Positions 27,491-51,862 are shown, counted from the first letter of the stretch. The stretch is DNA of 64,000 bases from Promethearchaeota archaeon (GCA_019058295.1 JAHPZI010000010.1:37478-101477); one strand, 5' to 3'. Made by a program: numbers and translations. The notes: generated from the letters alone by a model not told the origin.

Positions 27491-28741
27491 TTATGGATAA
27501 TGACCTCTTAATTTTATTGCTTCAGCAACCCCAGAAACTGCAAGAACGTAAGCGGCCATTCTTAAAGTGACTTTTCTTTCTTGAGAGAGGGTATATACAT
27601 CCTCAAATGCTTTTAATAGAACTCTTTTAAGTTCTTTGTTGATTCTCTCAAGATCCCAAAAATAAGCATTAATATCTTGAATATATTCAAAATATGATAC
27701 TAACACACCACCGCTATTAGCAAGAATGTCTGGAACAACAGTTATTCCTTTATTTTTCAAGATTTCATCAGCATCAGGTGTTGTGGGTCCATTAGCCCCC
27801 TCAAGTATGATTTTGCAATCAATTTCTTCCGCATTTTCTTTTGTTATTTGATTTTCTGTGGCGGCGGGAATTAATATGTCACATTTTAATTTGAAGAAAT
27901 CCATATTTGATATATTTTGTACAGAATTCTTTTTATAATCCTTTATTTCCTTGTATTTATCTTTCCATTGCATTAATTCATTGATATTAATACCATCCTC
28001 AGAATATAATATAGCAGAAGAATCAGAAATAGCAATAATTTTACACCCTATATTATATAACTTTTCTGCGATGACTTTGCCCACCTTTCCAAAGCCTTGT
28101 ATAGCTACCGTCATCTCAGATAAATTTAAACCCATTTTAAGACAAATTGCCTCAGCTATAAAAAATAAACCTGTTCCCGTAGCTGTGGACCTTCCAAGGG
28201 AGCCTCCAATCTCAACAGGTTTCCCAGTTACCACCCCTGGAACTGTGACTCCTTTATGCATAGAATATACATCCATTAACCAAGCCATTGTCTGAGAGTC
28301 CGTATTCATATCGGGAGCAGGAATATCTTTATCGGGACCAATAAAATTAATTATTTCGACTGTGTATCTCCTTGTAAGCCTCTCAAGTTCTGCTTTAGAT
28401 AATTTTTTAACATCTACTTTAATACCTCCTTTTGCTCCTCCTAATGGTAATTTTAATAAACTCGTTTTCCATGTCATCCACATCGCTAAAGCTTTAACCT
28501 CGTTAAGATTTACATTTTTACTATATCTTATACCTCCTTTTCCAGGACCTTTAACCAAAGAATGATGAACCCGATGACCTTCAAACATCTGAAGTGAACC
28601 ATTATCCATTATTATTGGAATTGATACCGTAAGTATTCTTTGACAATACTTTAATCTTTCATGTATATTTGGATCCAAATTAATTTCTTTAGCTACAATT
28701 GCAAGTTGTTTTTTTGCTACTTCATAAGGATTTATTTCCAT
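27491..28741 (-). CDS. gdhA: Glutamate dehydrogenase
   Basis: GPGKGGIR, GGAKGG, DIPAPD, QGFGKVG, EGANGP, ANSGGV; likely start ATG 28741. Confidence 0.95.
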   Translation of the reverse strand: MEINPYEVAKKQLAIVAKEINLDPNIHERLKYCQRILTVSIPIIMDNGSLQMFEGHRVHHSLVKGPGKGGIRYSKNVNLNEVKALAMWMTWKTSLLKLPLGGAKGGIKVDVKKLSKAELERLTRRYTVEIINFIGPDKDIPAPDMNTDSQTMAWLMDVYSMHKGVTVPGVVTGKPVEIGGSLGRSTATGTGLFFIAEAICLKMGLNLSEMTVAIQGFGKVGKVIAEKLYNIGCKIIAISDSSAILYSEDGININELMQWKDKYKEIKDYKKNSVQNISNMDFFKLKCDILIPAATENQITKENAEEIDCKIILEGANGPTTPDADEILKNKGITVVPDILANSGGVLVSYFEYIQDINAYFWDLERINKELKRVLLKAFEDVYTLSQERKVTLRMAAYVLAVSGVAEAIKLRGHYP

Positions 28742-28837
28742 AATATAAAACAAAATCTAATGTTTTTAAAAATATTTATTTTATTTAAAAAATAAAATAA
28801 AATTTTGAAAGTAGAAGGTGAATAATTTAAAATAGAT

Positions 28838-30235
28838 TTATTTCTTATTTTGCAGATATTTATTTATTTCTATTGCTGCTTTTCTTCCTGCACCCATTGC
28901 AGAGATCACTGTCGCAGATCCCGTAACAATATCTCCTCCTGCGAAAATATCTTCAATATTAGTCCTACCATCTTCGTCGGTCTCAATATAACCCCATTTA
29001 TTTAGCTTTAAGTCAGAAGTAGATTTAGTAAGGACAGGATTTGCTCTCGTTCCAACTGCTATAATAACAGTATTTGTATTTATGATAAATTCAGTATTTT
29101 CGATGGGAATTGGTCGACGCCTTCCAGATTCATCTGGTTCACCTAGCTCCATACGGATACATTCCATTTGAATAACATTATCATTTTCATCTCCTATAAA
29201 GCGAACGGGATTTGTTAAAAATTGGAATTCAATACCTTCTTCTTTAGCGTGATGATATTCTTCTTGCCTTGCGGGCATTTCTTTCTCTGATCTTCTATAA
29301 ACGATAATCACTTTATTAGCACCTAGTCTTAAAGCAGTTCTAGCAGAATCTAAAGCAACATTTCCTCCACCGATTACAGTTACAATTTTACCAACGTTAA
29401 TGGGTGTATCATATTCTGGAAAGGAATAAGCTTTCATTAGATTAGCCCTAGTAAGAAACTCATTTGCTGAAAGAACACCAATCAATTTTAACCCAGGTAC
29501 TTTTAGAAACATCGGAAGTCCTGCCCCCACACCAATGAAAAAAGCTTTAAATCCCATGTCTCTTAGATCTTGAATGGAATAAATTTTTCCTATGATTGCA
29601 TTATAATGAATTTTAACTCCCATTTCCGTAAGTGTATTAATCTCATCTGCTACGATGGCTTTTGGTAGACGAAATTCTGGGATGCCATAAACTAATACAC
29701 CTCCGCCTGTATGAAAAGCTTCAAAAATAGTCACATCGTATCCGTATTTCGCAAGATCAGCCGCACAGGTTATGCTTGCTGGGCCACATCCTATAACTGC
29801 GACTTTAATGCTATTAGGAGGCATACATTCGGGACAAGATTTGATCATATTATTTCTTTCCCAGTCTGCCACAAATCGTTCTAGGGCACCAATTGCGATG
29901 GGTTCCCATCGTTTCCCCAGCACACATTTTCCTTCGCACTGAACTTCCTGAGGACATACTCTTCCACAAATTGCAGGTAAAATGTTGAAGTTTTTTATAG
30001 TATCGATTGCTTCTCTAAAATTCTTTTCTTTAATATGCTTAATGAATTCAGGTATATCTATAAAAACAGGACAACCCTCTACACATAAAGGTTTAGCACA
30101 CTGTAAACATCTATCTGCTTCTATAATTGCTTGTTCTTCTGTAAAACCGAGGGGGACTTCCTTGAAATTATGAATTCTAACATTAGGATTTTGTTCTTCC
30201 ATTCTTTGCCGAGAAACTCTTTTTTTATCGCTCAA
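28838..30235 (-). CDS. nfnB: NfnB/SudA (GltD-like) NADPH-dependent flavoprotein
   Basis: CLQC..P.CVEGCP, CGRVCPQE.QCEGKC, YGIPEFRL, GGGNVA, AGGD; paired with NfnA. Confidence 0.85.
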   Translation of the reverse strand: MSDKKRVSRQRMEEQNPNVRIHNFKEVPLGFTEEQAIIEADRCLQCAKPLCVEGCPVFIDIPEFIKHIKEKNFREAIDTIKNFNILPAICGRVCPQEVQCEGKCVLGKRWEPIAIGALERFVADWERNNMIKSCPECMPPNSIKVAVIGCGPASITCAADLAKYGYDVTIFEAFHTGGGVLVYGIPEFRLPKAIVADEINTLTEMGVKIHYNAIIGKIYSIQDLRDMGFKAFFIGVGAGLPMFLKVPGLKLIGVLSANEFLTRANLMKAYSFPEYDTPINVGKIVTVIGGGNVALDSARTALRLGANKVIIVYRRSEKEMPARQEEYHHAKEEGIEFQFLTNPVRFIGDENDNVIQMECIRMELGEPDESGRRRPIPIENTEFIINTNTVIIAVGTRANPVLTKSTSDLKLNKWGYIETDEDGRTNIEDIFAGGDIVTGSATVISAMGAGRKAAIEINKYLQNKK

Positions 30236-30253
30236 CGAATAAAATCCTATTTA

Positions 30254-31135
30254 TTAATTCTTATTTTTATTTAATTTCTCTATTGCCTTACATTCATGCT
30301 CATAATGTTCAATCGATTTCATTTCTTGTTCTTTATATCTCATTGAACGTTTAATGAGATTATCAAAATCTACTGTATGCCCATCCACATCTGGACCGTC
30401 TACACATGCAAAATAAACCTCACCTGTATTTGTCAAGTATCTACATCCACCACACATTCCAGTACCATCGATCATAATAGGATTTAATGACACCATAGTA
30501 TCGATTTTTGGAAGTCCTGAGCTTCCATTTGTTGTTAAGACCACATATTTCATCATAAGTAATGGGCCAATCGCAATAACTAAACTTACTTTTTTCTCTG
30601 TTATTATTTTTCTTAAGGGTTCTGTTACAACGCCTTTTATTCCTTCTGAGCCATCGTCAGTACAAATAACTAATTCTTCGCTTACAGAAGCCATTTTATC
30701 TTTCCAAAAAAGTAACTTCTTTGTTCTAGCTCCGATGATTGTAAGTATTTTGTTCCCGGCCTCTTTCAATTCTTTAGCTTGAGGATAAGCTGGAGCAATA
30801 CCAATACCTCCTCCTATGACTACAACAGGATTCTCATATTTTTTAATATGAATTGCATTTCCTAAAGGTCCAGCCACGTCTAAAATATCGTCTCCTTCAT
30901 TAAGATGAGATAATAATGTAGTTGTTTTTCCAACAACTTGAAAAACAATTGTAATAGTACCTAATATACTATCATAATCAGCTATTGTAAGAGGAATTCT
31001 CTCTCCTTTCTCATTAATTCGAATTATGATGAAATTACCTGCATGTGCTTTCTTTGCTATTTGAGGGGTTTCCAAATCCATTTCATAAAGCAGGTCCTTT
31101 ACTAATTCAATTTTTTTTAATATCTTATATGGCAG
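30254..31135 (-). CDS. nfnA: NfnA/SudB (PyrK-like) FAD/[2Fe-2S] subunit
   Basis: GERIPLT, GPLG, GGGIG, TDDGS, DGTGMCGGC...CVDGP. Frame extends 18 codons upstream to CTG 31135 (PYKILKKIEL...). Confidence 0.85.
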   Translation of the reverse strand: MPYKILKKIELVKDLLYEMDLETPQIAKKAHAGNFIIIRINEKGERIPLTIADYDSILGTITIVFQVVGKTTTLLSHLNEGDDILDVAGPLGNAIHIKKYENPVVVIGGGIGIAPAYPQAKELKEAGNKILTIIGARTKKLLFWKDKMASVSEELVICTDDGSEGIKGVVTEPLRKIITEKKVSLVIAIGPLLMMKYVVLTTNGSSGLPKIDTMVSLNPIMIDGTGMCGGCRYLTNTGEVYFACVDGPDVDGHTVDFDNLIKRSMRYKEQEMKSIEHYEHECKAIEKLNKNKN

Positions 31136-41255: not shown

Positions 41256-42902
41256 TTAATAATTTCCAGAGTAAATTTCTTTTTTAACTAGTTCTAAATC
41301 AAGTTCTTCTTGTGATTTTATCCCTAATTCCCAATGATTACATACATCAAAAGCTCTTTGGGAAATGCAGGCAATATCCTCTCTAGAAATCAGATCTAAT
41401 TCGAATTTTCTAATGCCCGCGAGTAATTGCTTCAGTCCAGTGCCTAATTTGCTTGCAAAATATGTATAAACTCCAACTGGAGAAGCAGGAATTTCTTTAT
41501 CAGGTAGCTTTCTTTTTAAGGAATCATACTCTACAAATGCTTCACTCATCGTCAATGTATCTGGTTCTTTATCAGAAGGAAATCCTAAAGAAGTAAGCAT
41601 TCCTCTATTTGCTGCTTTTTTTTCAATTATTTCACCCATATATTTTCCTTTCATAGCGGCGGTTATCGGTGCTCTAGCCATGGCAATACAAGTCGTATAT
41701 GGAGCTCCCATTGCAAGTGCCTTAAACATCTGAGTTTCATTTGCAAAACCGCCAGCAATAGCAATTGTGGGAATTTTTACATTTGGACTCTTTTTCTTAA
41801 TCATATCTAAGCAGCCAATTACTAATGCTTGTAGATAAACCGTTGGAATTGAACCTTCATTCATCATACTAACAGGGCTCATTCCTGTACCGCCACCAGC
41901 TCCGTCAAAGGTCATTCCGTCAACTTTGCCCTCAATACCTAATCGTGTTATCCAAGCTGTCGCAGCTGGTCTATATGCACCAGTTTTAATGAAAATGTTC
42001 TTAGCTCCGCTTGACCTTATTTGATCAATTTCCTCTAAAACTTCCTCTGTAGTAGACAATCCAACTCTACTATGTCTCTCAAAATCAGGGATCATTCCCG
42101 CTTTCCATTGTTCTATCACAAATGGATCAGAAGGATCGGGAATAACTAAGTAACCTCTTCTTTGTAATAATTGTGCATGCTCTAAGGTATGTAACCTTAC
42201 TTCTCCACCAATAGCTTTTGCTCCTTGTCCAAATTTTATTTCAAGTGAAGTTACATCTAATTTTGAGGTGACATAATCAAAAACACCCAATCTTGTATCT
42301 TCAACATTCTTTTGAACAATAATATCTCCATTTTGTCCATCCCAATATTCTCTGAAGGTATCAACACGGAATTTCATATCTTCTGTATCGATTACCTTTG
42401 GATATACACCAGATTCATCGAATTTTGCATTAGGATCCATCCCTACAACATTTTCTCCAACTGTAATGCTAACACCTGCAAGAGCAGCTCCTCCAGCTAA
42501 TCCAATCCAATTTCTTTTAGCAACATATGTACTACCTAAACCAGCAATTACAATGGGTAATTTTTGATCTATATTCCCCCATTTAGTACTAATATCCACA
42601 TTAGGAAAAATTACTAAATCCTCTTCTTCCTTAATTCCTTGGGCCCCTCTCACTTCAAATTGGATCTGAAAATCACTATATGATAAGCCGAAATCCTTAG
42701 GTGTGCCTGCAGTTGAGTTTCCAAAATATTCGCGTGAAGGATATAAGACCTCTCTGCCCCTAAGAGCGCTTTTACTAACTTCACAAAAGACAGGGCAATC
42801 AGCTACACAAATAGGACATAATCCAGATTCACACGAATCCTCTACTCTTGTTCGCGTACCAATCATACTCGAACGATGAGTTACCATTGAAAATTTTGTC
42901 AT
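41256..42902 (-). CDS. FMN-binding glutamate synthase family protein (stand-alone GltB FMN domain)
   Basis: EIKFGQGAKAIGG, DGAGGGTG, AGG, KALAMGA; N-terminal Cys cluster CESGLCPICVADCPVFC. Confidence 0.85.
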   Translation of the reverse strand: MTKFSMVTHRSSMIGTRTRVEDSCESGLCPICVADCPVFCEVSKSALRGREVLYPSREYFGNSTAGTPKDFGLSYSDFQIQFEVRGAQGIKEEEDLVIFPNVDISTKWGNIDQKLPIVIAGLGSTYVAKRNWIGLAGGAALAGVSITVGENVVGMDPNAKFDESGVYPKVIDTEDMKFRVDTFREYWDGQNGDIIVQKNVEDTRLGVFDYVTSKLDVTSLEIKFGQGAKAIGGEVRLHTLEHAQLLQRRGYLVIPDPSDPFVIEQWKAGMIPDFERHSRVGLSTTEEVLEEIDQIRSSGAKNIFIKTGAYRPAATAWITRLGIEGKVDGMTFDGAGGGTGMSPVSMMNEGSIPTVYLQALVIGCLDMIKKKSPNVKIPTIAIAGGFANETQMFKALAMGAPYTTCIAMARAPITAAMKGKYMGEIIEKKAANRGMLTSLGFPSDKEPDTLTMSEAFVEYDSLKRKLPDKEIPASPVGVYTYFASKLGTGLKQLLAGIRKFELDLISREDIACISQRAFDVCNHWELGIKSQEELDLELVKKEIYSGNY

Positions 42903-43227: not shown

Positions 43228-43896
43228 ATGTCTGAAAAAAGTATAGGTATACCCCTATTAGGAGATAAATTTCCTGAAATGAATGTCCAAACGACTCAGG
43301 GGATGATGAAATTACCAAATGATGCAAATGAGGGAGGTAAATGGTGGTTTATATTATTTAGCCATCCTGCAGATTTTACACCCGTTTGTACTACTGAATT
43401 CCATGCGTTTGCTGTGAGAAATGAAAAATTTCAAGAACTCAATACGCGATTAATAGGGCTCTCTATCGATCAAGTATTTGCCCATATAAAATGGGAGGAA
43501 TGGATTAAAGATAATCTAAAAGTTGAGATTCCATTCCCAATTATTGCTGATGATGGAACAGTTGGAAAAAAGCTAGGAATGATCCATCCAGGAAAAGGCT
43601 CAAATACAGTTAGAGCGGTTTTTGTTGTAGATCCCGAAGGAAAAATTCGACTTATTCTATATTATCCCCAAGAAATTGGTCGTAATATGGACGAAATTCT
43701 TAGGGCAGTTAAGGCACTTCAAACAGCAGATGCAAATAAAGTTGCAACTCCAGCAAATTGGCCGAATAATGAATTATTTGGAGATCATGTGATAATCCCG
43801 CCAGCAAAAGATGTTAAAACAGTAAAAGAACGTCTTTCAAATGCAGGAAAGGATTATGAATGCTTAGACTGGTGGCTCTGTCATAAAAAATTATAA
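43228..43896 (+). CDS. Peroxiredoxin (Prx6/archaeal type)
   Basis: [22 protein letters not shown]-terminal CLDWWLC. Confidence 0.93.
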
Positions 43897-44132
43897 ATTT
43901 TAATTTACTCTTTTTTATTTTTTTAAAAATTTAGAAGTAGCTATAAAAATCTTTGAAATTTATTATTAAAAATCTGAATTTCTATAGATTCACCTGAAAG
44001 TTTTTCAGATTTGATTCCCATTTTTTGAAATTTCTTTAATTTATTGAATTCTCCTTATCATTTTGTTTTATAGGATATTAAGATTAATGAAAAAACTTAT
44101 ATTTGGTAAAAATATATATAATAATAATATAT

Positions 44133-44160
44133 AATATAACTTTGTGATAAAAATATAACT
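44133..44160 (+). promoter_or_regulatory. AATATAACT direct repeat upstream of the hdrBC-gltB operon
   Basis: AATATAACT at 44133 and 44152; the whole 28-bp element is near-identical to 50289-50317. Confidence 0.6.
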
Positions 44161-44178
44161 TACCCAAAGTGATGTAAA

Positions 44179-45528
44179 ATAACAATTCAGCAAGATATTG
44201 TTTTATTTCCAGGATGTATGATATCTTACCGGTTGCCTTTTATTGAAGTGTCAATTAGAAAGGCTTTGGAGTTTTTTGGAATTCAATTTAGTGAAAATTC
44301 GCGATTTTCATGTTGTCCTGAGCCTAATGGTATAAAAAATACGGATGAATTAATTTATTCAATTACAGCGGCGAGGAATTTAGCACTTGCTGAAGGCGAA
44401 AAAAGGAATATCTTAACACCGTGTAATGGTTGTTTTGAAACTTTAAAGGGGATAAGATCAGAAATAAGATCTGATCTTCATTTTCGAGATAGAATGAATT
44501 CTCAGCTTGAAAAAATAGATTTAAAAGCTACAGGAGAATATGATGTTTTCCATTTAGTTGAATTCTTTCATAAATTAGGAAAAGATCTAATTAAAGATAA
44601 CATTAAATATCCTTTAACGGGATTACGTGTCGCTGTTCATTATGGTTGTCATTTTCTTAGACCTAGTAATAAAATACAGATGGATGATCCTATGGAGCCA
44701 CATATTTTCGATGAATTAATTGAAGATTTGGGAGCTAAAAGTGTAGAATATGACAGAAAGATGGATTGCTGTGGGGGAAGTCTGGCAAGAGCAGATAATC
44801 CAGATTCGGGGATGGAAATGACGCATACTAAATTAGAAATTATGAAAGAAAGGAGAATTGATTGTATAGTTGTCGGGTGTCCGCAATGTTTTACTCAATT
44901 TGACCATGTACAGCAAGATCTCAAGAAATTAGATTATGAATATGACATTCCTGTGTTATATTATTCAGAACTTTTGTGTATAGCACTTGGGATCGACATC
45001 AGGGATACTATTAGAAGATTTCATAGGATATCTGTTGATAAAGTCTTTGAAAAAGTGGATTTAATTCACCAAAAGAATGAAGAAATTAAAAAATACTTTG
45101 ATATTGAGTTCTTGAAGAAATGTTATTCATGTGGGGCATGTAATAATGACTGTCCTGTCGCTAAGATTACATCATTCGATCCTAATAATATAATTAAAAA
45201 AATCCTTGATGGTGATTTGGATAAAGTTATAAAAGATCCCTCTATTTGGATGTGTCTTGATTGTTATGTTTGTTATGAACTATGCCCTATGAGGGTTGGA
45301 TTAGTTGATATTTTTACAACTTTAAGAAATTTAGCAAGAGAAAGAGGATATATAACAAAAGGATTTGAGGGCCAACTTGATTCCTTTAAAAAAATGGGAA
45401 CAGTTGCGATGTTTTCCCGTTCAGCAAGGAAGAGGGTTGGTTTGTCGTCAAGTAAACCTCAGATTGATGATCTGAAACAAATCATAAAAGAACTTAAAAT
45501 TGAAAAAAAATTGGAGGAGAAAAGTTAA
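44179..45528 (+). CDS. HdrB-HdrC fusion (two CCG domains + [4Fe-4S] dicluster)
   Basis: FPGC, SCCP, PCNGC, HYGCH, DCCGG, GCPQC, then CYSCGACNNDCP and CLDCYVCYELCP. The FPGC motif lies upstream of the first ATG (44218), implying an ATA start at 44179. Confidence 0.88.
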   Translation: MTIQQDIVLFPGCMISYRLPFIEVSIRKALEFFGIQFSENSRFSCCPEPNGIKNTDELIYSITAARNLALAEGEKRNILTPCNGCFETLKGIRSEIRSDLHFRDRMNSQLEKIDLKATGEYDVFHLVEFFHKLGKDLIKDNIKYPLTGLRVAVHYGCHFLRPSNKIQMDDPMEPHIFDELIEDLGAKSVEYDRKMDCCGGSLARADNPDSGMEMTHTKLEIMKERRIDCIVVGCPQCFTQFDHVQQDLKKLDYEYDIPVLYYSELLCIALGIDIRDTIRRFHRISVDKVFEKVDLIHQKNEEIKKYFDIEFLKKCYSCGACNNDCPVAKITSFDPNNIIKKILDGDLDKVIKDPSIWMCLDCYVCYELCPMRVGLVDIFTTLRNLARERGYITKGFEGQLDSFKKMGTVAMFSRSARKRVGLSSSKPQIDDLKQIIKELKIEKKLEEKS

Positions 45529-45530
45529 GA

Positions 45531-46724
45531 ATGAGATGGGAGAATTATACAAGTCCCTCTGAAAAATTTAGAAATGAAAGAGTCTTTGATGGATGTGGGA
45601 TAACTGGATTTATAAATATTGATGGGACTCTCACAAAAGGAGATAAAATCATAGAAATGTTGGAAATTTTGCATGATCGAGAGAATGGACTAGGTGCGGG
45701 GTTTGCAGCATACGGAATATATCCGCAATATAAAGATTTCTATGCGCTCCATTTTCTGTTCGATAATGATCAAATAAGATTAAATACAGAAGATTTTCTC
45801 AGTTCAAAAGGAGTTGTGGTTTTTTCTGAGCCGATTCCAACAAAACAGCCAAGCAATGTTGATAAACCTCCTATTGTTTGGAGAATGTTTTACGAGCCAA
45901 AAGAAATGAAAAGTTTATCTCAGGATGAACAAATGGTTCAACTTGTAATGGAAGTAAATGAAAAAATTGAAGGTGCTTTTATAATGTCCTCAGGTAAGAA
46001 TATGGGTGTTTTTAAGGGTAATGGGTGGTCACATGAAATTGCAGAATATTACAAAATTAAAGATTATGAAGCATACATGTGGCTAGGTCATAGTCGCTTT
46101 CCAACAAATACTCCTGGTTGGTGGGGAGGAGCTCATCCTTTTAATCTACTAGGGACGTCTGTTGTTCATAACGGTGAGATTACATCTTATGGAACCAATA
46201 TGCGATACTTAGAATCATTTGGGTATAAATGTACATTATTTACCGATACAGAAGTTATCGCCTATTTATTTGATTTATTAGTTAGAAGGCATAAGCTTCC
46301 GATTCCTATTGTTAGCTTAGCATTGGCACCTCCACTTTTTAGTGAGATTGAAAGTATGGATAAAAAATATCAGCTTGCGCTTAAAAATATCAGAGCTACC
46401 TATCGATCTGCTATGCTAAACGGGCCATTTTCCATTGTTGTAGGTCAAAATGGACATATACCTACTCTGATCGGCTTGACAGATAGGAAGAAATTGAGAC
46501 CTTTAATTGCCGCAATATCAGAAGATGAAAATACAATATACTTAAGTAGTGAAGAGGCTTCCTTTAAAAGATTAATGTTAGATTCTAGCAAATCTTTTAA
46601 ATTCAAAGAAATTTGGCATCCACGCAGTGGTACAGCCGTTGTAGCGAGGTTAGGAGAGGGACTTATTAGAAATGGGCTTGAGTTACCATTTGAAAATTTA
46701 CAATTATCAGTTATGGGGGTTTAA
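45531..46724 (+). CDS. Glutamate synthase amidotransferase subunit (archaeal GltB1, class II GATase)
   Basis: Propeptide then CGITG; HSRFPTNT, AHPF, HNGEI, TDTEV, DRKKLRP. Confidence 0.9.
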   Translation: MRWENYTSPSEKFRNERVFDGCGITGFINIDGTLTKGDKIIEMLEILHDRENGLGAGFAAYGIYPQYKDFYALHFLFDNDQIRLNTEDFLSSKGVVVFSEPIPTKQPSNVDKPPIVWRMFYEPKEMKSLSQDEQMVQLVMEVNEKIEGAFIMSSGKNMGVFKGNGWSHEIAEYYKIKDYEAYMWLGHSRFPTNTPGWWGGAHPFNLLGTSVVHNGEITSYGTNMRYLESFGYKCTLFTDTEVIAYLFDLLVRRHKLPIPIVSLALAPPLFSEIESMDKKYQLALKNIRATYRSAMLNGPFSIVVGQNGHIPTLIGLTDRKKLRPLIAAISEDENTIYLSSEEASFKRLMLDSSKSFKFKEIWHPRSGTAVVARLGEGLIRNGLELPFENLQLSVMGV

Positions 46725-46730
46725 AGCTAA

Positions 46731-48251
46731 ATGTCATTAAGCCATATTTTTCCGACATATTTTAAAATAGAGATTGATCGAGACTTATGTAAGAAATGCA
46801 AGCGATGTACGAATCATTGTTCCTATGGAGCATTGAGTTTTAATGGAGAGAGAATAGTTGCTGAAGATGATAAATGTGTGGCCTGTCAGAGATGTGTTAC
46901 TATGTGTCCGGGAAAAGCAATAAGAGTTGTTAGAAATGAATCGTATCTACCTCCTCACGGAAATTATACAAGAAGAATAAGAAATATCATTTGGGCTCAG
47001 TCTGGGAATGGAGGTGTATTATTAAGTGCTACTGGAAACGATAGACCCATTAGATCTATATTTGATGATTTGCTCCTTGACGCATGCCAGGTAACCAATC
47101 CAGCAATCGACCCATTAAGGGAAACAATCGAAACTAAAGTTTTCTTTGGTCGCAGACCGAATAAACTTGATTTTTCGATGGATGAAGGGGATCCTTCTAA
47201 AGTATCCTTGAAAACGGAGTTTTATCCTCACTTCGAGATTGATATGCCTATTATGGTAGGTCATATGAGCTTGGGCTCTATTAGCTACAATGCATGTATG
47301 GCAATATATCAAGCATCGAAAGAGTTAAATATATTAGCAGGTTCAGGAGAGGGAGGTTTGCATCCAGATTTCTATGAATATGGTCCTAATATCATCTCAG
47401 AAGTTGCTTCAGGTAGGTTTGGAGTCGATATTAATTACTTGCATAATGTTGCGGGTTTGGAAATTAAGATTGGGCAAGGCGCTAAGCCAGGACATGGCGG
47501 ACATCTCCCTGGCGAGAAAGTCAATACCCTGATCTCTCAAACCAGAATGATTCCAAAAGGTTCTGATGCTTTGAGCCCATATCCTCATCATGATATATAT
47601 TCCATAGAGGACCTTGCCCAGCTCATAGCTGCATTAAAGGAAGCTACGCGATACAAGGTGCCTGTTGGTGTAAAAATCGCAGCTGTTCATAATTCAGCAC
47701 CAATAGCAGTTGGAATAGTAAGAGGAGGAGCAGATTTCCTCACACTAGATGGTTTCCGAGGTGGTACTGGAGCGGCACCAAGAATTATAAGGGATCACGC
47801 AGGGATTCCAATTGAACTTGCGATCGCTTCTGTTGATCAGCGTTTAAGAGACGAAGGACTTAGGGATGAAATCACCTTAGTAGCAGGGGGTTCCATCAGA
47901 TATTCTGCAGATTTAATAAAAGCAATTGCATTAGGAGCTGATGTAGGAATGTGTTGTTTGCCAGTTCTAATTGCTATGGGATGTAGGATGTGTCAACAAT
48001 GCTTTAGGGGATTATGTTCTTGGGGTATAGCTACTCAAAATGAGTATTTGGTAAAGAGACTCGACATAGACGTTGCACGAAATCGTATCATCAATTTATT
48101 CCATAGTTGGAACGAGGAGCTCAAAGAAGTTTTAGGCGCGATGGGAATTGATTCAGTTGAATCCCTTCGTTCAAATCGAGATAGATTAAGATACATTGGT
48201 CCAAATCCAAGAATTGCTGAAATATTAGGAGTAAAACATGCAGGAGAGTGA
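46731..48251 (+). CDS. Glutamate synthase FMN subunit with N-terminal ferredoxin (archaeal GltB2)
   Basis: Two CxxCxxCxxxC; MSLGSIS, GEGG, EIKIGQGAKPGHGGHLPGEKV, HHDIYSIEDL, CRMCQQCFRGLCSWGI. Confidence 0.93.
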   Translation: MSLSHIFPTYFKIEIDRDLCKKCKRCTNHCSYGALSFNGERIVAEDDKCVACQRCVTMCPGKAIRVVRNESYLPPHGNYTRRIRNIIWAQSGNGGVLLSATGNDRPIRSIFDDLLLDACQVTNPAIDPLRETIETKVFFGRRPNKLDFSMDEGDPSKVSLKTEFYPHFEIDMPIMVGHMSLGSISYNACMAIYQASKELNILAGSGEGGLHPDFYEYGPNIISEVASGRFGVDINYLHNVAGLEIKIGQGAKPGHGGHLPGEKVNTLISQTRMIPKGSDALSPYPHHDIYSIEDLAQLIAALKEATRYKVPVGVKIAAVHNSAPIAVGIVRGGADFLTLDGFRGGTGAAPRIIRDHAGIPIELAIASVDQRLRDEGLRDEITLVAGGSIRYSADLIKAIALGADVGMCCLPVLIAMGCRMCQQCFRGLCSWGIATQNEYLVKRLDIDVARNRIINLFHSWNEELKEVLGAMGIDSVESLRSNRDRLRYIGPNPRIAEILGVKHAGE

Positions 48252-49081
48252 AAAATATGATAAAAACAACTATGATTTTGAGTAAAGAGAATAAAAAAAC
48301 AGTTGAGATAGATGTTGCACCTAATGGGAAACCTTTAAAATATCAAGATTTAAACGACAAAATCCATGAAATTATTCAAAATGGATATGAAAGATTGATT
48401 TTGAATAATGTTTGTGGCCAAAGATTTATTGCTGCCTCTCTACAAGGAGACTTTGAGATAATTATAAATGGGATTCCTGGTAATGATTTAGGAGTCTTTA
48501 TGGATGGTCCTAAAATCATTGTTAATGGAAATTGTGAAGATCAAATGGGTAATACCATGAATGATGGTTTTATCATCGTTGATGGGGATGGCGGCGATGT
48601 GATAGGCTTATCTGCAAGGGGAGGCAAAATCTATGTGAAAAAAGATGTTGGCTATAGAGTAGGGATACATATTAAAGAATATGAGCATCAATATCCCATA
48701 ATCATAATTGGAGGAACTGCGGGAGATTTCCTAGGTGAATATATGGCTGGAGGTCTTATAATTACTTTAGGATTAAAATTCTTACCTGATGGGACGATTA
48801 TAGAAAATAGTCATTCAATTTGTGGAGGAGAATTAGGTACTGGAATTCATAGGGGAAAGATTATTCTAAGAACTGAAGAAAATCTTGAGTCAAAATTAGG
48901 AGTAGGGGCAAAACTTTTTAAATTAATGGAAGAAACAAAAAAAGAAATAGAACCTTATATCAAAGAATTCTGTGAAATCTTCAATATCCCTTTTGATCTA
49001 ATTGGCAAAAAACCATTACAAGTGGTAAAACCAATCTCAAAAAGACCATTTGGAGGAAATTACTGCGGACAGTATATATAA
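48248..49081 (+). CDS. Glutamate synthase GXGXG subunit (archaeal GltB3)
   Basis: GQRFI, GNDLG, GNTM..G, GEYMAGG beta-helix repeats; overlaps the GltB2 stop codon. Confidence 0.9.
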   Translation: MKNMIKTTMILSKENKKTVEIDVAPNGKPLKYQDLNDKIHEIIQNGYERLILNNVCGQRFIAASLQGDFEIIINGIPGNDLGVFMDGPKIIVNGNCEDQMGNTMNDGFIIVDGDGGDVIGLSARGGKIYVKKDVGYRVGIHIKEYEHQYPIIIIGGTAGDFLGEYMAGGLIITLGLKFLPDGTIIENSHSICGGELGTGIHRGKIILRTEENLESKLGVGAKLFKLMEETKKEIEPYIKEFCEIFNIPFDLIGKKPLQVVKPISKRPFGGNYCGQYI

Positions 49082-49629: not shown

Positions 49630-50109
49630 TTATTTTTCCATTAATTCAGCTAAATTTGTACCTTCTTTTATCACATTTAAAATTAAATGGGTATTTGTAT
49701 TTTCAACATAAGGTTTAGAGTTAATATTCTTAACCATTTCACTAAGGCCTTTCCTGGTCTTAAATCTCGCTAATATCAATGCATCATATTTACCTGTGAC
49801 ATCATAAACTCCAAAAACATGAGGATCTTTTGCGATATCATTTTCTACTTCGAGCATCTTCCCCTGTGAGATATTTAGCTCAACGAGAGCGATAATGTCA
49901 TATCCTAATTTTTCATAATCGATCTCAATTGTAAAATTTTTCAAGATTTTTCCTTCCATCAATTCCTCTATATGTTTTCCAATAGTCGTGGGTGATTTAT
50001 CCAATTCCTCCCCTAATTTACGATTTGATTTACGGCTATCTTCAGTTAATATCCGTAAAATATCATAATCAATAGATTCTAACTCTTTCAACTTTTCATC
50101 ACTCATCAT
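49630..50109 (-). CDS. Lrp/AsnC family transcriptional regulator
   Basis: DYDILRIL..DSR.S...LG HTH, IDYEKLG, YDVTGKYD; divergent from glnA. Confidence 0.92.
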   Translation of the reverse strand: MMSDEKLKELESIDYDILRILTEDSRKSNRKLGEELDKSPTTIGKHIEELMEGKILKNFTIEIDYEKLGYDIIALVELNISQGKMLEVENDIAKDPHVFGVYDVTGKYDALILARFKTRKGLSEMVKNINSKPYVENTNTHLILNVIKEGTNLAELMEK

Positions 50110-50359: not shown

Positions 50360-51862
50360 ATGACTACAACAAAAGAAAGTTTAGCAAAAGGTATTATTAG
50401 TCCTGAGATGGGATCGGCAGAGGCAGCAAAAAAAATATTAAAAGAAGAAAAAGTAGAATTTGTGCTATGTGCTTTCACGGATGTTCGAGGGATCTTTCAA
50501 AGCTTTAGTTCCCCTGTTCATCATTTTCTAGAAGGAGATCAATATTTTGAAACCGGGATTGGTTTCGATGGCTCAAGTATTAGAGGATTTAGAGAGCTTC
50601 ATACAAGCGACATGATTTTTTATCCTGATCCCGAAGCGTTGTATGTTCTTCCATGGACTAGTGGTATACAAAAAACAGCTGTTCTTATAGGCGACATCAG
50701 AGAGCCTTATGGTAGCAGTGAAGCCGCGGATTGTGACCCTAGGGGATATGTAGCAAGACGTGCTATTGAAAAAGCTAAATCTATGGGGTATGTGCCTTAT
50801 TTCGGACCTGAAATTGAATTTTTTGTATTTAAGTCAATAGATCCGAGCAGCTTAAATTATGATATCTTTGTTAGCCCTAAGGGGGGTGCAGGAGATAGTT
50901 GGGGGCCTCCTCGAGTAAATCCTGTATCACCAGAAACCGATGTAGGAGGGTATATACTACGTCCTAAAGAAGCATACTTTAGGAATCCTCCAGAAGATAC
51001 CACAAATGGCTATCGAAATGAATTGGCTCATACACTTGAAATAATGGGATATTCTATAGAAATGCATCATCATGAAGTATCTACGAAAGGTCAGGTAGAG
51101 TTAAACTACAGCTATAGTGACTTACTTGACACGGCAGATAAAGTCCAAATTTATAAGTTAGCTGCAAGAAATATTGCCGCTAAATATGGATGGATTGCTA
51201 CATTTATGCCAAAACCAATTTATTTAGATAATGCCAGTGGTATGCATGTTCATAATTCATTGTTTAAAAATGGGGATAATGTAATGTGGGATCCTAATGA
51301 TGATTACGCAGAGATAAGTCAAATATGCCGATATTATATTGGGGGGCTATTAGAACATGCTGAGGCATTAACTGCTATTTGTTGTCCTACAGTTAATTCA
51401 TATAAGCGATTAGTACCCGGTTTTGAGGCTCCAATAAATGTAATGTATAGTAGAAGAAACAGATCAGCACTTATCCGTATTCCTGTTTACTTAAAAGGAG
51501 AAAAATATAAAAATAGAAGACGAATAGAATATAGAGGCGTTGATCCTTCGACAAACTCATATTTTGCGTTCGCAGCAATCGTTACAGCTGGTTTAGATGG
51601 TATAAAAAAGAAAATTGATCCTGGTGATCCAGTCGACCAAGATGTATACGAGATGTCGGAGGCAGCCAAGAAAGCAGCAGGGATTAAGCAATTACCTACC
51701 ACGTTAAAAGAAGCATTAGATGTTTTGGAGAGTGATGCGATATCAAAGGAAATATTAGGATCGCATCTCTATGATGCCTTTATAGAATATAAGACAAATG
51801 AATGGAACCAATTTTGCCTTTATGTGACACCCTGGGAGATAATGAAGTATCTGGATTATTAA
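50360..51862 (+). CDS. glnA: Glutamine synthetase type I (with long internal insertion)
   Basis: FDGSS, GPEIEF, HHEV, ATFMPKP...NASGMH, NSYKRLVPGFEAP, NRSALIRIP, RIEYR. Confidence 0.95.
   Translation: MTTTKESLAKGIISPEMGSAEAAKKILKEEKVEFVLCAFTDVRGIFQSFSSPVHHFLEGDQYFETGIGFDGSSIRGFRELHTSDMIFYPDPEALYVLPWTSGIQKTAVLIGDIREPYGSSEAADCDPRGYVARRAIEKAKSMGYVPYFGPEIEFFVFKSIDPSSLNYDIFVSPKGGAGDSWGPPRVNPVSPETDVGGYILRPKEAYFRNPPEDTTNGYRNELAHTLEIMGYSIEMHHHEVSTKGQVELNYSYSDLLDTADKVQIYKLAARNIAAKYGWIATFMPKPIYLDNASGMHVHNSLFKNGDNVMWDPNDDYAEISQICRYYIGGLLEHAEALTAICCPTVNSYKRLVPGFEAPINVMYSRRNRSALIRIPVYLKGEKYKNRRRIEYRGVDPSTNSYFAFAAIVTAGLDGIKKKIDPGDPVDQDVYEMSEAAKKAAGIKQLPTTLKEALDVLESDAISKEILGSHLYDAFIEYKTNEWNQFCLYVTPWEIMKYLDY

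Follow-up and report, generated by a model that had tools for sequence, protein, structure and literature searches.

A fusion of HdrB-like and HdrC-like domains as candidate electron-input subunit of a split glutamate synthase in Asgard archaea and bacteria

Glutamate synthase (GOGAT) is the main point at which ammonium enters biomass, and its textbook reductants are NAD(P)H, ferredoxin and, tentatively, F420. A 64,000-nucleotide stretch of DNA from a Promethearchaeota archaeon (JAHPZI010000010.1:37478-101477, assembly GCA_019058295.1; hereafter the window, with positions counted from its first letter) raises the question of what else might serve. The GOGAT operon at 44179-49081 consists of four co-directional genes, hdrBC, gltB1, gltB2 and gltB3, separated by gaps of 2, 6 and -4 bp (the GTG start of gltB3 overlaps the stop of gltB2 by 4 bp), is headed by an HdrB-HdrC fusion, and holds no gene for GltD, FrhB or HdrA in the open reading frame (ORF) list and the Pfam and NCBIfam annotation. 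The original prediction, made from the sequence alone, had described this order and spacing, which the ORF list and the translations bear out, and the lack of GltD, an FrhB-like subunit and HdrA, which the domain annotation confirms.

We lean slightly towards reading the four genes as a single enzyme, a split archaeal-type GOGAT with the HdrB-HdrC fusion as fourth subunit, through which electrons from a dithiol donor would enter. Comparative genomics gives good support to HdrBC as the electron-input subunit of the GOGAT, its most likely role; the existence of a physical complex, the way electrons flow, and both the thiol character and the identity of the donor are what we infer. HdrBC would thus stand in for GltD, which serves NAD(P)H, for plant-type ferredoxin docking, or for the FrhB-like subunit that serves F420.

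The three gltB products carry the amidotransferase, flavin mononucleotide (FMN)/2-oxoglutarate and GXGXG domains on separate polypeptides, by which the operon is assigned to the split archaeal-type glutamate synthases, predicted to make two glutamates from glutamine, 2-oxoglutarate and two electrons. GltB2 scores 416 bits with the Glu_synthase profile (PF01645), of whose 369 positions it covers 6-368, and matches PDB entry 7mfm at E=7.5e-60, the KPGxGGxLPG block being conserved; a search of its own genome found no other full Glu_synthase gene. Conservation of cysteine ligands was assessed in 37 orthologues, archaeal and bacterial; in these, GltB2 keeps without exception the eight cysteines of its N-terminal dicluster domain and the four of the stretch C418-x2-C421-x2-C424-x4-C429. 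In the alignment to solved GltS (7mfm, 2vdc) the latter falls on the [3Fe-4S] motif C-x5-C-x4-C; it has one cysteine extra and may bind a [4Fe-4S] cluster. In GltB1 a propeptide of ~21 residues (ending in VFDG) precedes the catalytic cysteine of the sequence CGI; this cysteine (motif GCG[IL]) is kept in every orthologue whose start is correctly placed and is predicted to be exposed at the N-terminus after propeptide removal.

The fusion comprises two CCG domains (PF02754, 92.8 bits) followed by a 4Fe-4S dicluster domain, in the order CCG-CCG-Fer4. TIGR03288, the HdrB model, matches residues 7-293 at E=2.5e-77, TIGR03290, the HdrC model, matches residues 313-440 at E=2.6e-26, and the TfrB model NF004898 matches at E=5e-21. 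Among solved structures, the alignments with methanogen HdrB 8rvu_b (E=7.9e-89) and HdrC 5odc_C (E=7.4e-24) extend over the whole of the respective parts. The CCG motif, of spacing C-x31-39-CC-x35-36-C-x2-C, occurs in two copies, whose cysteines C13/45/46/82/85 and C157/197/198/234/237 are invariant in the 37 sequences and which are predicted to form two non-cubane [4Fe-4S] sites. Equally invariant are C315/318/321/325 and C359/362/365/369 in the HdrC part, arranged in two motifs of the form C-x2-C-x2-C-x3-C(P), one per predicted [4Fe-4S] cluster. Outside the hdrBC-gltB123 cassette, the closest relatives of the HdrB part are HdrB subunits encoded in Asgard HdrA-HdrC-HdrB clusters.

An HdrBC profile scan, with one genome per species, returned 410 relatives, a figure that does not equal 410 cassettes since the search patterns occur in ordinary HdrB too, and the best 80 of the 410 were checked. 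Among these 80, the amidotransferase gene is directly next in all 65 loci with at least 1.3 kb of downstream sequence, and all three gltB genes follow in the same order in 58 of the 59 loci with at least 3.7 kb; tight spacing or overlaps between the cassette genes are found in most loci. Carriers include metagenome-assembled genomes (MAGs) labeled as the Asgard lineages Loki-, Thor-, Hod-, Hermod-, Odin-, Sigyn-, Jord- and Freyarchaeota, one Bathyarchaeota and one Thermoproteota MAG, and, at 35-40% identity, bacteria of the Actinomycetota (Coriobacteriia, including Slackia-labeled MAGs, Thermoleophilia, Gaiellales and Anaerosomatales), the Armatimonadota and the "Hebobacteria". Four metagenome or genome contigs whose homologues are 63%, 56%, 45% and 42% identical harbor the same four genes between unrelated flanks. 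The concern raised along with the original prediction, that the linkage might be unique to this genome, is thereby laid to rest, the order being kept in the neighborhood survey over two domains of life.

The B-then-C arrangement is itself distinctive. Full-length fusions of this order form ~26 clusters among 1.84 billion representatives, and gltB genes follow the fusion in both distant clusters that were looked up again. Where the order is C-then-B, or hdrC and hdrB are separate genes, the neighbors are HdrA/MvhD, POR or AOR genes, and the B-then-C clade is therefore specific to glutamate synthase. One such other context is a cluster encoding POR delta/alpha/beta, an HdrA-MvhD fusion and an HdrC-HdrB fusion (locus L093, 2151-8392), i.e. 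a pyruvate-oxidizing Hdr complex, which shows that fusions of the C-then-B order work with other partners. In maximum-likelihood trees, HdrBC and GltB2 agree in all deep splits (the bacterial clade, the Jord/Freya/Thermoproteota group beside it, the Sigyn/Bathy group and the Loki group), and their patristic distances correlate at r=0.96. The cassette has been inherited and has moved as a unit. Furthermore, in a sample of 121 genomes from the phylum HdrBC adjoins the GltB2 gene in 10 of the 12 other genomes in which this could be checked.

Loci in which parts of the cassette are exchanged bear on the role of the fusion. One Asgard genome (G081) harbors, besides an HdrBC cassette, a second gltB123 copy with a different leading gene, arranged as glnA - Pyr_redox_2 flavoprotein - gltB1 - gltB2 - gltB3 - polyferredoxin. 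The Pyr_redox_2 gene encodes a PadH/NirB-like NADH module, occupies the position of HdrBC and overlaps the amidotransferase gene; this NADH-type cassette is seen in two loci (L089, L090), and its GltB2 is ~50% identical to that of the HdrBC type. By analogy, HdrB would correspond to the substrate-oxidizing flavoprotein and HdrC to the polyferredoxin wire, and a third input of the exchangeable kind would be the FrhB-like subunit suggested for methanogens. Conversely, a bacterial contig of 54% G+C carries separate hdrB, hdrC and gltB2 genes (L092, 7001-9856) with no amidotransferase or GXGXG gene within 13 kb and a gdh gene nearby; the trio may be an ammonia-dependent or otherwise different reductase. 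Since hdrB, hdrC and gltB2 occur together without gltB1 and gltB3, the HdrBC-GltB2 pair looks like the constant core, and GltB2 is likely the direct partner of HdrBC. That HdrBC is the electron partner of the GOGAT, as originally suggested, thus draws support from the conserved order, the co-divergence, the NADH-module swap and the trio; for a possible link to the thiol/disulfide pool, the other half of that suggestion, it is the homology to HdrB, with its ten invariant CCG cysteines, that speaks.

The NADH-type cassette is also pertinent to a different reading, that the enzyme is a ferredoxin-dependent split GOGAT in which HdrBC is accessory, be it as a thiol-redox sensor gating activity, a protective add-on or a second, non-essential input. 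GltB2 does carry an invariant dicluster domain of its own, no donor gene is linked to the cassette, the complex model described below is weak, and in one genome gltB1-3 are intact after most of hdrBC has been lost. However, the NADH-type cassette keeps the dicluster domain of GltB2 and yet adds both an input flavoprotein and a polyferredoxin, so that this domain looks like a wire and not like the point of entry. Likewise, the invariance of all 18 cluster ligands of HdrBC in archaea and bacteria, the order kept in 58 of 59 loci and the existence of the hdrB-hdrC-gltB2 trio speak against it, and we regard this reading as unlikely.

Returning to HdrBC as the input subunit, several observations weigh against it. 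The sole exception to the conserved order (L025) has hdrBC and gltB1 and lacks gltB2. The cassette is patchy, GltB2 of this type being found in 14 of the 121 sampled genomes, and co-divergence of conserved neighbors occurs whether or not their products touch, and is on its own no proof of contact. In the genome with the damaged fusion (G123), a relative from the same family, hdrBC is a 59-residue 3' remnant with stop codons beside intact ORFs for gltB1-3, so that either the GOGAT may function in the absence of HdrBC or the operon of this relative may be in decay; there, the remnant lies in a rearranged stretch (L091, G123:C81, 7105-8400) beside fragments resembling an unrelated enzyme. The dicluster domain of GltB2 could take electrons from free ferredoxin without HdrBC, and the survey of neighboring genes found no donor-related gene recurring beside the cassette. 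HdrBC also misses the NCBIfam equivalog cut-offs of both of its models (TIGR03288, 260 vs 345 bits; TIGR03290, 92 vs 160), and its match to NF041780 reaches 146 bits against a cut-off of 450. Lastly, CCG-domain proteins are not always thiol enzymes, those of the SdhE, GlpC, GlcF and LutA types passing electrons to quinone or to acceptors that are not known.

Multimer modeling, which had been proposed as a check, gave the GltB2-HdrBC pair an ipSAE of 0.39 vs 0.00 for the best control, with at least 88% contact agreement between runs and a partner pLDDT of at least 85. In the calibration set, 58 of 80 solved complexes attained the mark, as did 2 of 110 mismatched pairs; scores of 0.60 or below came from 7 of the 80 solved complexes and from both mismatches, and a score in this range is, without a prior, more often wrong than right. 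The predicted contact thus lends the complex weak support.

How electrons might travel through the proposed enzyme can be outlined from the cluster sites. A two-electron dithiol donor would be oxidized by the HdrB-like domain at its paired non-cubane [4Fe-4S] clusters, in the direction opposite to methanogenic heterodisulfide reduction and like that of thiol:fumarate reductase, whose TfrB subunit provides the precedent of an HdrB-like CCG module oxidizing thiols. Single electrons would then pass along the pair of [4Fe-4S] clusters in the HdrC-like domain to the two N-terminal [4Fe-4S] clusters of GltB2, on to the four-cysteine cluster beside the flavin, and from there to the FMN, which would reduce the 2-iminoglutarate made from 2-oxoglutarate and the ammonia that GltB1 releases from glutamine. 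With the neighboring glnA, this would complete a glutamine synthetase (GS)-GOGAT cycle for ammonium assimilation.

The HdrB part is close to methanogen HdrB and to the HdrB of Asgard HdrA complexes, which makes a dithiol the most economical guess for the donor. With potentials of about -0.27 to -0.29 V, dithiols such as lipoamide or thioredoxin are strong enough reductants for iminoglutarate. The host is an Asgard archaeon and not a methanogen: its source assembly is a low-GC Promethearchaeota MAG of 3.2 Mb and 79% completeness, G+C is ~30% in the window, and the nearest hdrBC homologues are in Promethearchaeota/Lokiarchaeia and other Asgard MAGs. Neither McrA nor ComA was found in five cassette-bearing genomes, the 79% complete genome of the host included, which makes the heterodisulfide of coenzymes M and B (CoM-S-S-CoB) unlikely as the substrate of HdrBC, and it was rejected as a candidate. 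HdrA, CoM/CoB, GltD and FrhB are not required partners of the HdrBC-GOGAT. The donor would be something other than CoM and CoB; candidates are a thioredoxin-like or lipoyl protein dithiol, or the disulfide carrier of Asgard HdrABC.

A lipoyl-protein donor is neither supported nor excluded. GcvH-like genes occur in 40 of 40 cassette genomes, never adjacent to the cassette, and are common in control genomes as well; a tblastn search with the GcvH-like protein of the own genome found no GcvH/LbpA-like gene within 7 kb of the cassette in 86 + 5 loci. GcvT was not found in the own, 79% complete genome, in which LplA/BPL gave a single weak match. The same genome contains an orphan GcvH-like lipoyl-carrier gene between MptE-like and NAD kinase genes (C30:75676-76092; 8677-9096 in L088), with orthologues in 20 of 20 sampled family members, including ones without detected GltB2; its presence therefore does not track the cassette. 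The peroxiredoxin encoded 5' of the operon was also considered as a thiol partner and rejected, as it is not a recurrent neighbor and is separated from the operon by a T-run.

The kinship of the HdrB domain with HdrA-complex subunits admits a further interpretation, in which the GOGAT is the high-potential arm of a flavin-based electron-bifurcating Hdr complex. HdrBC would dock to an HdrA that is encoded at another place, together with modules of the hydrogenase, FrhB or AOR kind, and the exergonic half-reaction would be the reduction of iminoglutarate in place of that of a heterodisulfide. The own genome does encode at least five full-length HdrA homologues and about 24 CCG proteins, and in methanogens it is HdrC that links HdrA to HdrB (PDB 5ODC). 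Against this stands the finding that HdrA is neither in nor beside the cassette in any of 86 loci, and that full-length HdrA was not found in two cassette-bearing bacterial genomes (G029 and G032), a complete 4.6-Mb armatimonadotal chromosome and a Coriobacteriaceae genome; in addition, the catalytic HdrB clusters would be left without a role. We consider this arrangement quite improbable. Of the HdrA homologues, several (C1:162291-164210, C7:36101-38014, C18:23062-25005 and C20:1-1026) contain 1-5 in-frame TGA codons, which may encode selenocysteine, and several of the about 24 genes for CCG-domain (HdrB/HdrD-like) proteins stand in tandem on contig C20.

The coordinates of the operon and of its surroundings are collected in Table 1.

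Table 1. Features of the hdrBC-gltB123 operon and its surroundings, in window positions
Feature	Position	Strand	Remarks
548-aa partial Glu_synthase-like protein	41256..42902	-	PF01645 E=9e-12, profile positions 186-300 only; recurrent neighbor
Peroxiredoxin	43228-43896		5' of hdrBC, then T-run
Presumed operon promoter region	43897..44178	+	AT-rich, 5' of hdrBC; T-run right after peroxiredoxin stop; inferred
hdrBC	44179..45528	+	HdrB-like (two CCG motifs) + HdrC-like 2x[4Fe-4S] ferredoxin fusion; proposed electron-input subunit
gltB1	45531..46724	+	class-II (N-terminal nucleophile, Ntn) glutamine amidotransferase; GATase_2 E=4.6e-11
gltB2	46731..48251	+	synthase subunit: N-terminal 2x[4Fe-4S] ferredoxin domain + FMN/2-oxoglutarate domain
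gltB3	48248..49081	+	GXGXG beta-helix subunit (GltB C-terminal domain); PF01493, 101 bits; GTG start
Lrp/AsnC-family regulator	49630..50109	-	divergent from glnA; recurs beside cassette in relatives
glnA, glutamine synthetase	50360..51862	+	Gln-synt_C, 408 bits; GS-GOGAT metabolic partner, commonest cassette neighbor

The start of hdrBC deserves comment. The reading frame is open from 44173, after a TGA at 44170-72, and its first ATG is at 44218; the peptide IQQDIVLFPGC, which includes the first CCG cysteine (C13), is encoded 5' of that ATG. In close relatives the peptide is conserved while its codons differ synonymously, and many of them lack an ATG, GTG or TTG before it; the homologous start codon is ATG or TTG in other lineages and ATA or ATT in this Lokiarchaeial clade. 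By this comparison the gene probably starts at a near-cognate codon, ATA 44179 or ATT 44185, and the placement of the start at 44179 in the original prediction is better than one at ATG 44218, the ATA being a reasonable start. With no standard start before the conserved peptide, gene callers truncate the HdrBC protein. The pattern (44173-44220 in the window) recurs at nine further loci (L007, L008, L009, L013, L022, L023, L025, L034 and L040), and a near-cognate start might tune subunit stoichiometry. A scan for promoters and terminators found 25 sites where 26.5 were expected, with a consensus that is bacterial only and uninformative for an archaeon.

The neighbors glnA, Lrp/AsnC, amt and guaA point to assimilation. 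In the window the operon is flanked by guaA, a paralogue that encodes the 548-aa Glu_synthase-like protein, the Lrp/AsnC gene, glnA and asnB, with a convergent DUF3795 gene 3' of the operon; across the loci, glnA neighbors the cassette in 26, Lrp/AsnC in 19 (directly upstream of it in L094), guaA in 10 and the 548-aa paralogue in 9, and amt, nadE and an aminotransferase gene are also found. The 548-aa protein, which had no NCBIfam match, is encoded at L008, L014, L015, L027, L031, L033, L035, L036 and L081 as well, one of these loci being actinobacterial.

An intact amidotransferase, the neighbors glnA, amt and Lrp, and the status of this enzyme as the only GOGAT found in the genome together favor assimilation, and the evidence supports ammonium assimilation rather than glutamate oxidation. 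The opposite direction would make the enzyme a glutamate:disulfide oxidoreductase of an amino-acid-fermenting archaeon, with glutamate oxidized at the FMN and electrons passing via HdrC and HdrB to a disulfide. Disulfide reduction is the usual reaction of HdrB, the Asgard archaea to which this one belongs live by amino-acid fermentation, and the trio variant without amidotransferase lies near a gdh gene. Nevertheless, the amidotransferase has its catalytic cysteine and propeptide in 65 of 65 loci, the recurrent neighbors are assimilatory, glutamine-dependent GOGAT is effectively irreversible, and the genome already has an nfnAB-gdh operon for oxidizing glutamate. Among the readings weighed here this one earns the least credence, and the reverse glutamate oxidation that the original prediction had entertained is thus disfavored.

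That second operon, nfnA-nfnB-gdh, lies on the minus strand at 27491-31081 of the window (NfnA-like gene, 30254-31081; NfnB/GltD-like gene, 28838-30235; gdh, 27491-28753) and likely constitutes an NADPH/ferredoxin-coupled route of glutamate catabolism. Its NfnB/GltD-like gene is the single Fer4_20/Pyr_redox_2 gene of the genome, 14 kb from the cassette. Because this GltD-like gene follows the NfnA-like gene and precedes gdh, it is assigned as NfnB, and as part of the nfnAB-gdh operon it was rejected as a hidden small subunit of the GOGAT. There are seven FrhB_FdhB_C matches in the own genome, none of them on the cassette.

The broader proposal is that of a fourth glutamate synthase class, in which a dithiol, perhaps on a carrier of protein or of low molecular weight and kept reduced by the many Asgard HdrABC-type complexes, is oxidized at HdrB-type non-cubane clusters and drives ammonium assimilation; we hold it tentatively, as a little more prone to fail than to stand. 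If it is correct, glutamate synthase would gain a new class of donor, both in Asgard archaea and Bathyarchaeota and in a number of bacterial lineages that are anaerobic or live in the subsurface; nitrogen assimilation would be linked to the redox chemistry of thiols and disulfides, and the "heterodisulfide" of Hdr systems outside methanogenesis would have its first identifiable consumer. Non-methanogens encode a great many HdrB-like proteins, and glutamate, as an easily measured product, would offer a handle on the substrate of HdrB. Metabolic models of Asgard archaea would be affected as well, the HdrBC-GOGAT being the only GOGAT found in the genome.

A search of full-text literature, with subscription journals outside its coverage, found no description of an HdrBC-GltB cluster, in agreement with the original remark that no enzyme of this type has been described, and HdrBC-GOGAT is apparently widespread and uncharacterized. 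Related literature mentions only FrhB- or GltD-linked forms or HdrA-GltD fusions, and a 2021 review of GltS goes no further than to state that Archaea have ORFs for single GltS domains (PMC8097209). Among the nearest described arrangements is the putative F420-dependent split GOGAT of methanogens (e.g. MTH193; PMC3087415, PMC9012536), which has the same three separate polypeptides and an extra operon gene thought to supply electrons; there the extra gene encodes an FrhB-like F420H2 oxidase, whereas here it encodes the HdrB-HdrC fusion, and the F420-dependent GOGAT itself "remains to be proven" (PMC3087415). NADPH-dependent GltS (GltB/GltD; 1EA0, 2VDC, 6S6S, 7MFM) and ferredoxin-dependent GltS (1LLW) have homologous FMN/2-oxoglutarate, Ntn amidotransferase and GXGXG domains, with a cysteine motif, that of a [3Fe-4S] cluster in solved GltS, in the same place beside the flavin. 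In contrast to the bacterial enzyme, the large subunit is here split in three, the synthase subunit has an additional 2x[4Fe-4S] domain at its N-terminus, the cysteines of the motif number four and not three, and the operon lacks GltD. The NADH-flavoprotein split GOGAT of L089 and L090 shares the gltB123 core, the glnA neighbor and an input gene at the operon head; its input is an NAD(P)H-oxidizing flavoprotein with a separate polyferredoxin instead of HdrB and HdrC.

On the side of the fusion, the CCG motifs and the ferredoxin motifs, two of each, have all their cysteines, as they do in methanogen HdrABC (5ODC, 7BKB, 8RVU, 9SFI). HdrBC differs from methanogen HdrB and HdrC in the B-then-C fusion, the lack of HdrA in the operon, the glutamate synthase partner, scores below the equivalog cut-offs and the non-methanogen host, and electron flow is presumably reversed. 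Its domain order is also opposite to that of HdrD/GlpC/GlcF-type fusions, in which the ferredoxin domain comes first and CCG follows. The sHdr-LbpA system (PMC6067878; 10.1101/2023.12.18.572138) likewise employs HdrB/HdrC-type subunits outside methanogenesis, in the oxidative direction and with a protein-bound dithiol cofactor as partner; sHdr loci always include lbpA, sulfur transferases and HdrA, unlike the HdrBC loci, in which a GcvH/LbpA-like gene is absent over the interval searched. The known precedent for the role proposed for HdrBC is TfrAB of Methanothermobacter, in which an HdrB-type module oxidizes thiols and drives the biosynthetic reduction of a flavoenzyme: TfrB joins a CCG module to an SdhB-like domain, serves a fumarate reductase and takes electrons from CoM-SH and CoB-SH, whereas HdrBC joins it to HdrC and is paired with a GOGAT in hosts without CoM or CoB.

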